Assembly (NCBI GenBank): GCA_947473125.1
Contig: CANJDH010000007.1
Coordinates: forward strand, 15,598 to 79,597
From: Burkholderiales bacterium
GTDB taxonomy: Bacteria > Pseudomonadota > Gammaproteobacteria > Burkholderiales > JAEUOS01
Length of the DNA stretch: 64,000 nucleotides
Direction: 5' to 3'
Position numbers and translations under genes: made by a program. Shown in pieces: positions 43,616 through 58,666 of the stretch. Every line of letters starts with the position of its first letter. Within the stretch, counting starts at the first letter, position 1. The notes under the pieces are model-generated. The model searched no databases. It was not told the origin of the DNA and worked only from the letters and a program-made list of their open reading frames with translations.

Positions 43616-44152
43616 TTAGGCGAGGGTTTCGATCGTATGGTTTTGATTGGTGTAAATGCAAATCTCACCGGCGATTTCAAGTGCCTTCTTGACCACCTCG
43701 GGCGCCGTGAGCTGCGTGTTGTCGAGCAGCGCCCTGGCAGCGGCCTGCGCATACGCGCCGCCGGAGCCGATGGCAACCAGGCCACCCTCGGGCTCAAGCA
43801 CATCGCCGTTGCCGGTGATGATCAGGGAGTGGTCGCGATCCGCCACGGCGAGCATCGCTTCGAGGCGGCGCAGGATGCGGTCGGTACGCCAGTCCTTGGC
43901 GAGCTCGACAGCGGAGCGCATCAGGTTGCCCTGGTGTTTTTCAAGCTTGGCTTCGAAGCGCTCGAACAGCGTAAAAGCATCGGCGGTGCCGCCGGCAAAC
44001 CCGGCGAGGATCTTCTCGTGGTACAGGCGCCGCACCTTGCGCGCCGACGACTTGACGATGATCTGGCCGAGCGTGACCTGGCCGTCGCCGCCGATCGCAA
44101 CCGAGGTGCCGCGACGCGCAGAAATGATGGTGGTGCCGTGGTACTGTTCCAT
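43616..44152 (-). CDS. hslV: ATP-dependent protease peptidase subunit HslV
   Basis: HGTTI catalytic Thr, [17 protein letters not shown]. Confidence 0.97.
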
Positions 44153-52809: not shown

Positions 52810-54483
<1,674 letters not shown>

Positions 54484-54556: not shown

Positions 54557-54847
54557 TTACTTGGTGACCACGCCCATGATGTCTTCCTCGCGCATCACGA
54601 GGAGCTCGTCGCCGTCGACCTTGACGGTCGAACCGGCGTATTTGCCGAACAGCACTTTGTCGCCGACTTTGACGTCAGGCGCGATCAGCTTGCCGTCGTC
54701 GCCACGCTTGCCGGGGCCGACAGCCATGACTTCACCCTGGTCGGGCTTCTCGGCGGCAGAATCAGGGATCACGATGCCGGATGCGGTTTTGCGCTCATCT
54801 TCGATACGCTTAACAATCACGCGATCGTGCAGGGGACGAATTTTCAT
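54557..54847 (-). CDS. groS: Co-chaperonin GroES
   Basis: [35 protein letters not shown]. Confidence 0.99.
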
Positions 54848-54971: not shown

Positions 54972-54998
54972 TTAGCACTCAACATCAACGAGTGCTAA
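54972..54998 (-). promoter_or_regulatory. CIRCE element (HrcA operator)
   Basis: Perfect TTAGCACTC-N9-GAGTGCTAA. Confidence 0.97.
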
Positions 54999-55026
54999 TT
55001 ATAGGGTCTTTCAACCGGATTGCAAG
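54999..55026 (-). promoter_or_regulatory. Sigma32-type promoter of groESL
   Basis: Minus strand CTTGCA-N14-CCCTATAA, abutting CIRCE. Confidence 0.7.
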
Positions 55027-55140: not shown

Positions 55141-55917
55141 CTATCTATGGAGAAACGGCTCGATGGACGCGATCGCGTCGCCGCGCAAGTAGCGACTATG
55201 CAGGAACGCCGACTGGACGCCGGCCAGCTCAATCAAGGCGCCACCCCGGTTCGCGCCGATTTTCCAGATCGCGGCTCCACTCATGCCCTCGAGGGCCGGG
55301 GTGTGGATCATCCGGCCATCGCCGCGTTCGGCCACCCGGCCATAGACGCAACGCAGATCCTCAGCAGGGTCGTCGTGTTGCCGTGTGGTAATGGTCAGGC
55401 GCTTGGCGGCCAGAAACCCGCGTTCAAAACGTGACCAGACCGCAGGAAACCCGGCGAGGCAGAAAGTGGCCGACCGATCGGTAGCGCGATGCTTGCGCCG
55501 CCGCAAGACTCGTTGCAGCGGCATGGCAACACGCCCGGTGAGCAGTCGCGACAGTTCGCGGGTCCGCGCCAGATCGACCATAGCGATGTCCGCACCGCCC
55601 AGCACGCGCACTTGCGCGCCTTCGAGCGACAGCAATTGCCCCGACCCGCGCTCCGGCACGAGCCAGTTGCCACTGGTGGTGGCCGCGTCGAACAGATGGG
55701 CTGCAGTGAGCAGCGTGTAATGCCCGTCACACGCTAGAAGGGTGCCCGTACCCAGAATGGCGGCGCGTGCGTGGTCGTGCACCGCTATCGGCACGGTACA
55801 CGCTTCGAGCAGGCCGGCAAGGCCCGAATTTGCCCAACCGGTGCCAGACACGCCGCGCTGCGGCTCGGCGCGATCAAAACGGATGCGCGTCTCGCCGACA
55901 TCGTCCCACAGGAACAA
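55141..55917 (-). CDS. Trypsin-like (chymotrypsin-fold) serine protease, no signal peptide
   Basis: GTGTLL, LTAAH (H74), DIA (D110), LAGFP, GMSG (S213), LAGV; TTG start with AAGAGG RBS, 26 nt after the AAA gene stop. Confidence 0.75.
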   Translation of the reverse strand: MFLWDDVGETRIRFDRAEPQRGVSGTGWANSGLAGLLEACTVPIAVHDHARAAILGTGTLLACDGHYTLLTAAHLFDAATTSGNWLVPERGSGQLLSLEGAQVRVLGGADIAMVDLARTRELSRLLTGRVAMPLQRVLRRRKHRATDRSATFCLAGFPAVWSRFERGFLAAKRLTITTRQHDDPAEDLRCVYGRVAERGDGRMIHTPALEGMSGAAIWKIGANRGGALIELAGVQSAFLHSRYLRGDAIASIEPFLHR

Positions 55918-55943
55918 GGCAGCGCCTCTTTTGTGTGAGAGCC

Positions 55944-56930
55944 TTAAAAACCGATGCTGCGCCGCTTTGCATGCGCGTCGCGAATGTCGTCCACCGACAA
56001 CTCGGATCGGCCCGAGAGCTTGGCGCTACCGAACGCCTGCCCCAGCAAGCGTCGCATTTCGCGCGGCCCGTTAGCGGCGAGTTTGTCCTGGACGGCCGAA
56101 CCGAGCTCAGACGGGAACTGCGCACCCCACTCATGGCTGTCGCGGATTTCCTTGTAAATCGAGCGTGCAATGCGACATGCCGCGTCGTGGTCGGGCGCTT
56201 CGATGTGATACACGTTCATGCGATTGAGCAGCGGCTCGGGGATGCGCGCTTCGTCATTCGCGGTGGCCATCCAAACCACGTCGGCAGCATCGATCGGCAG
56301 CTCGATGAATTCGTCGATGAACTCGGCGGCAGTGTCGTGTTCAAGCAGGCTGTAGAGCGCGCCGAGCGGGTCGTAGGCCCCGTCTCCCGAGGCCTTGTCG
56401 ATCTCGTCGACCACCATCACCGGGTTGGCGTATTCGCCGTGCAGGAACTGCTCGAACACCTTACCCGGTTTGGCGTTTTTCCACTGCGATGATGCGCCGC
56501 CGATGATCCAGCCGGCCGTGAGCGAACTCATCGAGATAAAACCGAAACCGGTACCGAGCAGTTTGGAAATGCGTTTGGCGAAGTGGGTCTTGCCGATGCC
56601 CGGGTCGCCGAGCAGCAGCATGGGTGTGAGTTCGAGGCGATCGCGGCTGTCGACGCACAGCGCAAGCTGGCGCTTGATGTCGTCGAGCACGTCGCCGAAG
56701 TTGGGCAGGTCTTCGTACAGATCATTCATCTCGGGCAGGCCCGAAGGCTTGACGGCGAAGCGCTCGCCTCCGGCACGCAACATCTTTTGGTACGTGTCGC
56801 GCAGCGCATCGTTTTGCCCGGCGACTTCGCCTAGTGCGCGATCCACCTTCTTGACGTCGTAAACCTGTTTCATGCCCGCAATCGGTATGTTGACCGACTT
56901 GTAGGGGACGGGAAGGGCAATCTCGCTCAT
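55944..56930 (-). CDS. Stand-alone Lon-like AAA+ ATPase (no Lon N-domain or protease domain)
   Basis: Walker A GDPGIGKT, Walker B VVDEIDK, DPLGALYSLLE, sensor-1 TAN, Arg finger LLNRM; 328 aa from ATG 56930 with AGGTGAGG RBS. Confidence 0.88.
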   Translation of the reverse strand: MSEIALPVPYKSVNIPIAGMKQVYDVKKVDRALGEVAGQNDALRDTYQKMLRAGGERFAVKPSGLPEMNDLYEDLPNFGDVLDDIKRQLALCVDSRDRLELTPMLLLGDPGIGKTHFAKRISKLLGTGFGFISMSSLTAGWIIGGASSQWKNAKPGKVFEQFLHGEYANPVMVVDEIDKASGDGAYDPLGALYSLLEHDTAAEFIDEFIELPIDAADVVWMATANDEARIPEPLLNRMNVYHIEAPDHDAACRIARSIYKEIRDSHEWGAQFPSELGSAVQDKLAANGPREMRRLLGQAFGSAKLSGRSELSVDDIRDAHAKRRSIGF

Positions 56931-56945
56931 GGCGGCCTCACCTTT

Positions 56946-56984
56946 CTGGTTACTGCGCTGCTGGTTACTGCGCTGGTTACTGCG
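56946..56984. repeat. Three copies of the 12-mer CTGGTTACTGCG in the AAA ATPase leader
   Basis: Copies at 56946-56957, 56961-56972 and 56973-56984 (3-bp spacer after the first). Confidence 0.92.
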
Positions 56985-57178
56985 TTGACAAGTATGCGGG
57001 ATCAACGACAATTCATTTAACTCCGCTGACACATAAGCGTTGACGGGAAAAGATAGACAAATATCCCGCATTAAGCAAACCAGCACTCACGCTTGTTCGC
57101 TGCCAGTCGCACATGCACGTGATGCGGCGCGCACCAATGGGGGTCAGATAATCGCGCATCGCATGGGATAATCAGTGC

Positions 57179-58666
57179 ATGGTTTCATCACGGACACGCT
57201 CGTACTCTGCAAAGCCTTGGTGGGCAATGGTCCTGGCGGTGTGGCTCAGCGCATTGCCGGGTGTCATTCCTGGTGCATCCGCCCAGCAAGCCGCACCAGA
57301 AACGGAAAGCGCACTCCCCGCCGGTTTTCCTGCGAGTGTTGCAAACGCGCTGCGTGCCGCCAAACTGCCCGCCTCGGCCATCGGCTTTTTTGTGCAGGAC
57401 GTAACGGCAACCAAGCCGGCATTGGCGCTCAATGCGGAGCGCGCCATGAACCCTGCATCGGTGATGAAGCTCGTTACCACCTACTCGGCGCTCGAGTTGC
57501 TCGGCCCGAGCTTCGTCTGGAAGACCGGTTTTTACGCCGCCGGTACGCTGCGCGGCGATGTACTCGACGGCCACCTGGCAATCAAAGGCTCGGGTGACCC
57601 CAAGTTTTCCCAGGAACAATTGTGGCTCGCGCTCAAGGCGGTACGCGCGCGCGGCGTGCGCGAGATTCGCGGCAACATCCTGCTCGACCGGTCCGGCTTT
57701 GAAGCCAACGGCTATGACCCGTCCAAATTTGACGGCGATCCTCTGCGGGCCTACAACGCCGGGCCCGATGCCCTGCTGATCAATTTCAAGGCGCTTGCCC
57801 TGACGTTTGTGCCGGACGAGGCCGGCACTGCGGTCACGGTCAGCGCCGAGCCGCGCGGCCTGCCGATGCGCTCCAGCGTCAAGCTGGGTCAGGGCGCCTG
57901 CGCGGAATTTCGCAGCTACCCGGTGAGGGCCAAAGTGGACGCGACCGGCATCGAGCTGACCGGCAGCTATGCCGCATCCTGTGGCGTCAAGACCTGGTGG
58001 CTGCATCCCTTCGAGTTGACGCACCAGCAATACGCGGCCGCGGTGATTCGCCAGTTGTGGGTGGATCTGGGAGGCGTACTTAGCGGAGAAGTGCGTGATG
58101 GCGCGTTGCCCGCAGGCAGCCGCCAGCTCTTCGAAGCGGAGTCTCTGAGCCTCGCCGAGGTGACGCGCGACATCAACAAATTTTCCAACAACGTGATGGC
58201 GCGCCAGCTGTTTCTCACCCTTGGCGCCGAAACGCTGAAATTGCCGGGCAGCGCGGAGCGTTCAGCGCGCGCCATCAGGACGTGGCTGATCGACAAAAAA
58301 GTCGGCGGCGACGAACTGGTGATGGAAAATGGCTCGGGGCTGTCGCGCATCGAGCGCATCTCGGCAGGCACATTGGGCCGCATGCTGGTGGCGGCGTTTC
58401 GCAGCCCGGTCATGCCCGAATTCATGTCGTCGATGCCGCTGGTGGCCTATGACGGCACCATGCGGCGACGCCTCAAGACACGCGACATTGCCGGGCAGGC
58501 CCACATCAAGACCGGCTCCCTCAATGACGTGCGTGCCATCGGTGGATACGTGCTGGCCGCGTCGGGCCGGCGTTATGCGGTGGTGTTCATGGTCAACCAT
58601 GGCAGTGCCGGCGCGTCGCAGGGGGCGCAGGACGCCTTGCTGCAATGGGTGCACGGCGAAGGTTGA
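57179..58666 (+). CDS. dacB: D-alanyl-D-alanine carboxypeptidase/endopeptidase (PBP4, peptidase S13)
   Basis: PASVMK (SxxK), GSGDP, FSNN (SxN), NGSGLSR, KTGS. Confidence 0.95.
   Translation: MVSSRTRSYSAKPWWAMVLAVWLSALPGVIPGASAQQAAPETESALPAGFPASVANALRAAKLPASAIGFFVQDVTATKPALALNAERAMNPASVMKLVTTYSALELLGPSFVWKTGFYAAGTLRGDVLDGHLAIKGSGDPKFSQEQLWLALKAVRARGVREIRGNILLDRSGFEANGYDPSKFDGDPLRAYNAGPDALLINFKALALTFVPDEAGTAVTVSAEPRGLPMRSSVKLGQGACAEFRSYPVRAKVDATGIELTGSYAASCGVKTWWLHPFELTHQQYAAAVIRQLWVDLGGVLSGEVRDGALPAGSRQLFEAESLSLAEVTRDINKFSNNVMARQLFLTLGAETLKLPGSAERSARAIRTWLIDKKVGGDELVMENGSGLSRIERISAGTLGRMLVAAFRSPVMPEFMSSMPLVAYDGTMRRRLKTRDIAGQAHIKTGSLNDVRAIGGYVLAASGRRYAVVFMVNHGSAGASQGAQDALLQWVHGEG

Follow-up and report, generated by a model that had tools for sequence, protein, structure and literature searches.

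Can a Lon-type AAA+ motor work together with a protease of the trypsin fold? This question is raised by two adjacent genes in a 64,000-nt stretch of contig CANJDH010000007.1 (assembly GCA_947473125.1; positions 15,598–79,597, forward strand) from an uncultured lake Burkholderiales. The whole stretch is referred to as the window, and coordinates are positions within it, on the minus strand unless stated otherwise. The gene for a Lon-clade AAA+ ATPase (55944–56930) is followed by that for a cytoplasmic serine protease (55141–55917), and then by groES and groEL. A partnership of ATPase and protease is suggested by the order of the two genes and by their co-occurrence within a single uncultured lineage. 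The reading preferred here, tentatively and as somewhat less than an even chance, is that of a lineage-restricted accessory two-gene module, in which one ATPase copy would feed or gate a captured protease.

To our knowledge, every characterised energy-dependent protease uses a ClpP, N-terminal nucleophile (Ntn) hydrolase/proteasome, Lon S16 or FtsH metalloprotease fold. No description of the present pair, or of the stand-alone family related to its ATPase, was found in full-text searches of the literature. The combination thus appears to be undescribed and, if functional, would represent a variation on the theme of two-component AAA+ proteases. A conserved operon of a Lon-type motor and a trypsin-fold protease would then be a new combination among energy-dependent proteases, and an example of AAA+ motors recruiting peptidases through the capture of a gene. 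The pair is a testable lead rather than an established system, based on comparative genomics of uncultured organisms; it offers a first functional approach to the stand-alone Lon-like ATPases of Burkholderiales, a very large and strongly conserved family that is uncharacterised.

The ATPase, the protease and their junction

The ATPase (328 aa) consists of an unassigned N-terminal region of ~100 aa followed by the large and small AAA+ subdomains. Translation starts at an ATG behind the ribosome-binding site (RBS) AAAGGTGAGG; a longer open reading frame starting with GTG and extending up to 57086 was ruled out by the lengths of the homologues (328–333 aa). The protein matches Pfam AAA at 3.8e-13 and the LonA model TIGR00763 at E=1.4e-29, the latter only across the AAA+ part (model positions 355–509 of 795) and with 103 bits versus a cut-off of 608. 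Its best PDB matches are AAA+ modules of Lon (E ~1e-22; 3m6a with 3e-22, and 7fd4). In agreement with the first-pass annotation of this locus, which had described a Lon-like ATPase devoid of both the Lon N-domain and the Ser-Lys protease domain, Pfam revealed neither an N-domain (no PF02190 match at E<=1) nor an S16 peptidase domain (no Lon_C match), and the chain ends ~70 aa past its arginine finger.

All Lon-like motifs named in that annotation are present and invariant in an alignment of 24 database sequences, the mean column identity of which (73 %) marks an extremely conserved family. These are Walker A (GDPGIGKT, aa 108–115; 56586–56609), the VVDEIDK portion (aa 173–179) of Walker B (VMVVDEIDK, aa 171–179; 56394–56420), DPLGAL (aa 187–192), sensor 1 (TAN, aa 223–225) and the arginine finger (LLNRM, aa 234–238); the lid motif PREMRR is likewise conserved. 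The equivalent of pore loop 1 is SSQWK (aa 147–151; 56478–56492), with Trp150 aligning to the pore-loop Tyr of Lon in the alignment to 3m6a. Trp150 and Lys151 are invariant, and the longer stretch SSQWKNAKPGK is conserved across the family alignment.

The ATPase terminates with Ile-Gly-Phe-COOH (IGF; aa 326–328, 55947–55955) after basic residues, a candidate docking tail. In all 22 genome-derived copies and all 24 aligned members, the C-terminus consists of a basic stretch and a final (I/V/M)-G-F-COOH, and this end is present in protease-linked as well as in stand-alone copies (also at loci L023, L027, L029 and L037–L040). Distant paralogues on plasmids (~40 % identity) retain MGF or VGF close to the C-terminus, though not at the very last residues. 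In ClpX, the IGF loop docks on ClpP, and the tail of the present ATPase looks like a docking motif of this kind. Judged from its Walker A and B motifs, sensor 1 and arginine finger, all of them intact, together with the aromatic pore loop and the basic IGF tail, the ATPase is most likely an active ring-shaped protein unfoldase or remodeller equipped with a docking tail. The AlphaFold2 model of the ATPase was poor (predicted local distance difference test, pLDDT, of 59) and was not used. A proteasome-like partner of the BPH/Anbu type was considered for the IGF tail and rejected, since second PF00227 genes do not follow the distribution of the ATPase. The window itself carries hslV (PF00227) at ~43625–44140, ~11 kb from the pair, and a second, weak proteasome-like match resides on contig C17 of the same genome.

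The protease (258 aa, TTG start) is a cytoplasmic, Trypsin_2-like member of the PA clan. His74 (in TAAH; 55696–55698), Asp110 (in DIA; 55588–55590) and Ser213 (in EGMSGA; 55279–55281) are invariant among 22 homologues, as is the oxyanion-hole glycine (Gly211), and the family profile places TAAH on His57 and D(V/I)A on Asp102 of chymotrypsin. The alignment confirms the His-Asp-Ser triad recognised in the first-pass annotation, in canonical order and motifs. In the predicted structure, the double β-barrel chymotrypsin fold is confirmed as well: the AlphaFold2 model is confident (pLDDT 86; predicted template modelling score, pTM, 0.87) and matches S1 chymotrypsin folds over its whole length in Foldseek (~250 columns, E=3e-8, probability 1.0, TM 0.55–0.6), including kallikrein, uPA and FXIa. 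By sequence alone, the evidence is weak for the protease of the window, with E=0.015 and 16.5 bits for Pfam Trypsin_2 (gathering threshold 27.6), while 17 of the 22 family members match this model at E<=0.01 (best, 1.3e-7); a PDB search with its sequence returned no match. The cytoplasmic, PDZ-free nature proposed earlier holds, too: the Pfam search detected neither a PDZ nor any other additional domain, and the acidic, hydrophilic N-terminus MFLWDDVGETRIRFDRAEPQR reads as free of a signal peptide or transmembrane helix.

The stop codon of the ATPase gene (TAA, 55944–55946) and the start codon of the protease gene (TTG, 55915–55917) are separated by the 26-nt spacer already noted in the first pass (55918–55943), including the RBS AAGAGG (55925–55930) positioned 7 nt ahead of the TTG. 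No promoter or terminator match was found inside this spacer; 3' of the protease gene, the RNA folds no better than shuffled sequence, i.e., no intrinsic terminator was detected there. Contigs from separate lake-water metagenome samples cross the junction without mismatch, so it is not an assembly artefact, and the base composition of the region is native to the host. Both genes are real, as judged from homologues reaching E=1e-97 to 1e-206 and from purifying selection on either gene.

Distribution and evolution of the pair

The GTDB family of the window comprises 22 species genomes. In 14 of them the protease gene follows the ATPase gene at a distance of 13–26 nt; in three (G002, G005 and G006, all of the window's genus) both genes are intact and separated by 9 kb or more, one (G016) contains only a deletion remnant in which the ATPase lid runs into the C-terminal half of the protease, and one (G012) has the ATPase without the protease. 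Neither gene is present in the remaining three, two of which are incomplete (~70 %), the third (G008) being 97 % complete. The adjacency emphasised in the first-pass annotation therefore stands for 14 of the 18 protease-bearing genomes, across three genera of the family; it does not extend beyond the family, where the refuting observation named in that annotation, a protease gene rarely adjacent to ATPase orthologues, applies, three sampled orthologues being monocistronic. A protease without an ATPase occurs in none of the family's genomes. Further metagenome contigs (P0004, P0027 and P0048) carry the same pair with differing flanks; metagenome contigs have dacB or a TonB receptor gene upstream of the pair, and groESL, an AAA_16 gene or a 2-oxoglutarate (2OG) oxygenase gene downstream, and a Bug/TctC gene is also among the flanking genes observed. 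Conserved order, tight spacing, changing flanks and the lack of any protease without ATPase are, taken together, what functionally linked gene pairs usually display.

Close homologues of the protease form a very small family, with 53 clusters among 5.8 billion proteins and 16 loci among 185,579 species genomes, all of these being metagenome-assembled genomes of uncultured Burkholderiales. Pairing of ATPase and protease is confined to one uncultured freshwater family of this order. The N-terminal strand MFRWDxVGxT was considered as a hallmark of ATPase-linked proteases and dismissed, since the wider, unlinked subfamily has the same strand.

The remnant of G016 (locus L056, 4741–6336) is a single frame of 532 codons, in which the ATPase lid (from ILNRMNVY onwards) is fused to the C-terminal half of the protease. 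It was rejected as a true ATPase-protease fusion and regarded as a remnant or pseudogene; it lacks the N-terminal barrel of the protease and thus His74 and Asp110. No genuine fusion to an ATPase was found among 2,759 protease relatives from a profile search of 1.84 billion representatives, nearly all of these relatives being single-domain proteins of 250–290 aa.

The two genes change at very different rates. Within the genus, the ATPases share 92–95 % identity versus 54–76 % for the proteases. Among the closest pairs, the ratio of non-synonymous to synonymous substitution rates (dN/dS) amounts to 0.06 for the ATPase and 0.20–0.22 for the protease, i.e., both are under purifying selection; one of these pairs compares G005 with G006, both of which are split genomes. 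Between the window and G005, identities are 76 % for dacB, 82 % for dinB, 87 % for threonine dehydratase, 93 % for GroES and 99 % for GroEL, as compared to 94 % for the ATPase, one of the most constrained genes in this region. The purifying dN/dS, including that of the split-genome pair, marks the protease as functional, yet unusually fast-evolving.

The ATPase family has >7,000 matches, the best 120 of which all have a length of ~330 aa and an identity of 65 % or more. Its stand-alone members in Burkholderiales are annotated as 'AAA family ATPase' or 'ATP-dependent Lon protease' and form an uncharacterised family. The caveat of the first-pass annotation that Lon-like ATPases also occur on their own was well founded: three sampled orthologues (65–69 % identity) are monocistronic and located between aroG and alaS, diverging from the aroG-type gene for DAHP synthase. 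They share length, N-terminal region, pore loop and IGF end with the ATPase of the window, but differ in that the latter moved beside dacB and gained a downstream protease gene. Genus g4 carries both a protease-linked ATPase and a second, more divergent and faster-evolving one (~60 % identity), which is convergent with alaS (G011, locus L037, 7425–8369; equivalents in G009, G014, G016 and G019). Since this second copy occupies the ancestral alaS locus, the linked ATPase is a distinct, relocated copy. The window's genome, holding the linked copy only, has lost the one at the ancestral alaS site. The ATPase tree sets the copies belonging to the family itself (linked, split and protease-less) apart from the stand-alone copies of other lineages and from the second copy of g4 (split support 89/95), the rooting of this tree being poor.

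A possible partnership and its alternatives

According to the preferred reading, the ancestor of a single freshwater Burkholderiales family would have captured a gene for a portable cytoplasmic protease immediately behind one of its ATPase copies, and the two genes would have been inherited together ever since. They would be co-transcribed, and the ATPase could either unfold or remodel substrates and pass them on to the protease, or gate the activity of the latter. Proteolysis would thereby be assisted by ATP and directed at a specific group of targets that change fast. The ATPase would retain a function independent of this partner, as suggested by its being the sole copy in the window's genome and by the partnerless orthologues elsewhere. 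Stand-alone orthologues, split genomes, the universal IGF tail and a protease lacking a ring-forming element mark the pair as an accessory, lineage-specific add-on to an ATPase with an older task of its own rather than as an obligate split enzyme.

Such a module would resemble ClpXP, ClpAP and HslUV in having one gene for the ATPase and another, next to it, for the peptidase (here within one family only), and the hydrophobic-Gly-Phe element of the ATPase recalls the IGF loop of ClpX. It differs from these systems by a peptidase that belongs to neither the ClpP nor the Ntn hydrolase type and lacks any evident ring-forming element, and by an ATPase of the Lon clade with its IGF at the extreme C-terminus. 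HtrA/DegP (S1C) provides the precedent of a bacterial serine protease from the PA clan that takes part in protein quality control; however, HtrA is ATP-independent, exported and assembled into PDZ cages, whereas the present protease is predicted to be cytoplasmic and single-domain, and its structural matches are to generic S1 proteases.

Several findings weigh against a partnership. The three monocistronic orthologues demonstrate that the ATPase does not require a protease partner, and protease relatives at 25–35 % identity do not adjoin an ATPase. G002, G005 and G006 keep both genes intact in spite of their separation, with the protease still under purifying selection (dN/dS of 0.20 for G005 versus G006); the DNA between the split genes of these genomes carries genes for a major facilitator superfamily (MFS) transporter and an alkyl sulfatase. 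The ATPase persists alone in G012, and G016 retains only the remnant joining both genes. No feature of the ATPase was found to be peculiar to the linked clade, the IGF tail being universal in the family. Finally, a monomeric trypsin fold devoid of an oligomerisation domain would have no obvious route to a degradation chamber.

One alternative is a serious possibility, though well short of an even chance: the two genes could be neighbours without mechanistic coupling, a portable, stand-alone protease having landed downstream of a conserved housekeeping ATPase, using the transcription of the latter while acting on unrelated targets. The fact that both partners have relatives working alone is as expected from this scenario, and so are the separation of the pair in three of six genus relatives, each with both genes intact, and the very unequal rates of change. 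What speaks for the preferred partnership instead is that the adjacency lasts across three genera while both flanks change, that the protease never occurs without the ATPase in the family, and that the spacer remains as tight as 13–26 nt.

The first-pass annotation had also envisaged a defence or toxin-antitoxin (TA) module. In an ATPase-gated protease for anti-phage defence, abortive infection or TA function, the ATPase would sense an infection cue and release or activate a toxic protease. The fast evolution of the protease would fit such a role, as would the insertion hot spot formed by the ATPase-groESL segment within the genus and the mobile or defence-like surroundings of distant protease relatives (25–30 % identity; L063, 4001–6144; L058, 5135–6774; L061). 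The latter are neighboured by a methyltransferase-recombinase block, by an AbiEi-like gene (AbiEi_3_N) or, on a conjugative plasmid of Burkholderia anthina, by a DUF4145 gene, and match the LmuA model of Lamassu weakly; the wider protease family may include defence effectors. For the pair itself, however, searches with PADLOC and PHROGs and against phages and plasmids yielded no specific match to a known defence system. Six proteases of the clade, including that of the window, are without any PADLOC v2 match, and the ATPase matches PADLOC models at P-loop level only (IetA, E=0.003–0.026 over 24 residues). The pair has no phage match; among plasmids, the protease has a single weak match (27.7 % identity, E=2e-9), and their matches to the ATPase are distant paralogues only (31–40 % identity). 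Moreover, the pair is inherited vertically in nearly every family member, at a fixed site between housekeeping genes and with native base composition, and the ATPase is 94 % identical where dacB, dinB and threonine dehydratase reach 76–87 %. IetAS, the example given in the first pass, shares the two-gene layout of an ATPase and a cytoplasmic serine protease, but IetS is a subtilase (S8) rather than a trypsin fold, the IetA models match the P-loop only, and, differing from IetAS and other defence pairs, the pair of the window lies outside a defence island. A defence or TA function is therefore unlikely.

A bolder version of the partnership would have the Lon-clade AAA+ ring drive the chymotrypsin-fold peptidase via docking of its invariant, basic C-terminal IGF tail, which would make the pair the first ATP-dependent protease of this composition, with the orphan family at large acting as a general tail-docking unfoldase with interchangeable peptidases. 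This appears improbable. Least likely is a strict split Lon, also considered in the first pass, in which a trypsin-fold ring would replace the S16 ring under the AAA+ hexamer in a stoichiometric, chambered and IGF-docked complex. Its positive evidence is the gene order, which mirrors the domain order of Lon (AAA+, then peptidase); in addition, the IGF tail leaves the ATPase where the Lon peptidase attaches, and resembles the loop by which ClpX docks on ClpP. On the other side, the protease is devoid of an oligomerisation or PDZ-type domain, thousands of ATPases without such a protease keep the IGF tail just as invariant, so that the tail was not built for this partner, the sole fused form is a deletion remnant deprived of the N-terminal barrel with His74 and Asp110, and three genomes demonstrate that the pair can be separated. 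As compared to LonA itself (MEROPS S16), to which its AAA+ module is closest, the ATPase shares Walker motifs, aromatic pore loop, sensor 1, arginine finger and lid, but it lacks the N-domain and S16 domain and stays at 103 bits against the cut-off of 608; the peptidase resides on a chain of its own, is unrelated in fold and uses a His-Asp-Ser triad.

groESL and other features of the locus

The groES (54557–54847) and groEL (52810–54471) genes are located on the same strand as the pair, behind a 293-nt spacer following the protease gene. The position of the pair upstream of groESL, to which the first-pass annotation had drawn attention, is thus correct, but the linkage is limited to the window's genus. 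A sigma-70-like promoter (TTGCAA-16-TATAAT) is predicted for groESL at 54972–55025; its -10 element is overlapped by a perfect CIRCE (controlling inverted repeat of chaperone expression) operator of HrcA, TTAGCACTC-N9-GAGTGCTAA (54972–54998). Coupling of groESL to the pair is ruled out by this own promoter with CIRCE and by the genus-limited linkage; the linkage is incidental, groESL representing, by its predicted control elements, an independent CIRCE-controlled operon.

Within the genus, the stretch from the ATPase via the protease to groESL forms a hot spot for insertions (L032, 7700–14001; L020, 7093–9809; L065, 5866–7098). The cargo differs from genome to genome and consists of MFS transporters, an alkyl sulfatase, or a gene for a 410-aa ATPase of the AAA_16 type.

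Upstream of the ATPase gene, dacB (PBP4, Peptidase_S13; 57179–58666, plus strand) and dinB are both divergently oriented, dacB being kept as neighbour in genera g1 and g2. Just upstream of its RBS, the ATPase gene has a tandem repeat in the 5' leader, with a period of 12/15 nt (CTGGTTACTGCG, three copies; 56946–56984). Further upstream, a sigma-54-like -24/-12 element (57091–57105) reads TGGCAGCGAACAAGC, its version in genus g2 being TGGTACAGCCGTTGC. Elements of this type occur 140–290 nt upstream of the ATPase start in the window and in 7 of 24 related loci, i.e., in a patchy manner, and one stand-alone ATPase locus (L023) has such an element at -48. Loci with the element beyond the window include L015, L008, L014, L016, L041 and L068, as compared to ~0.3 loci expected by chance.

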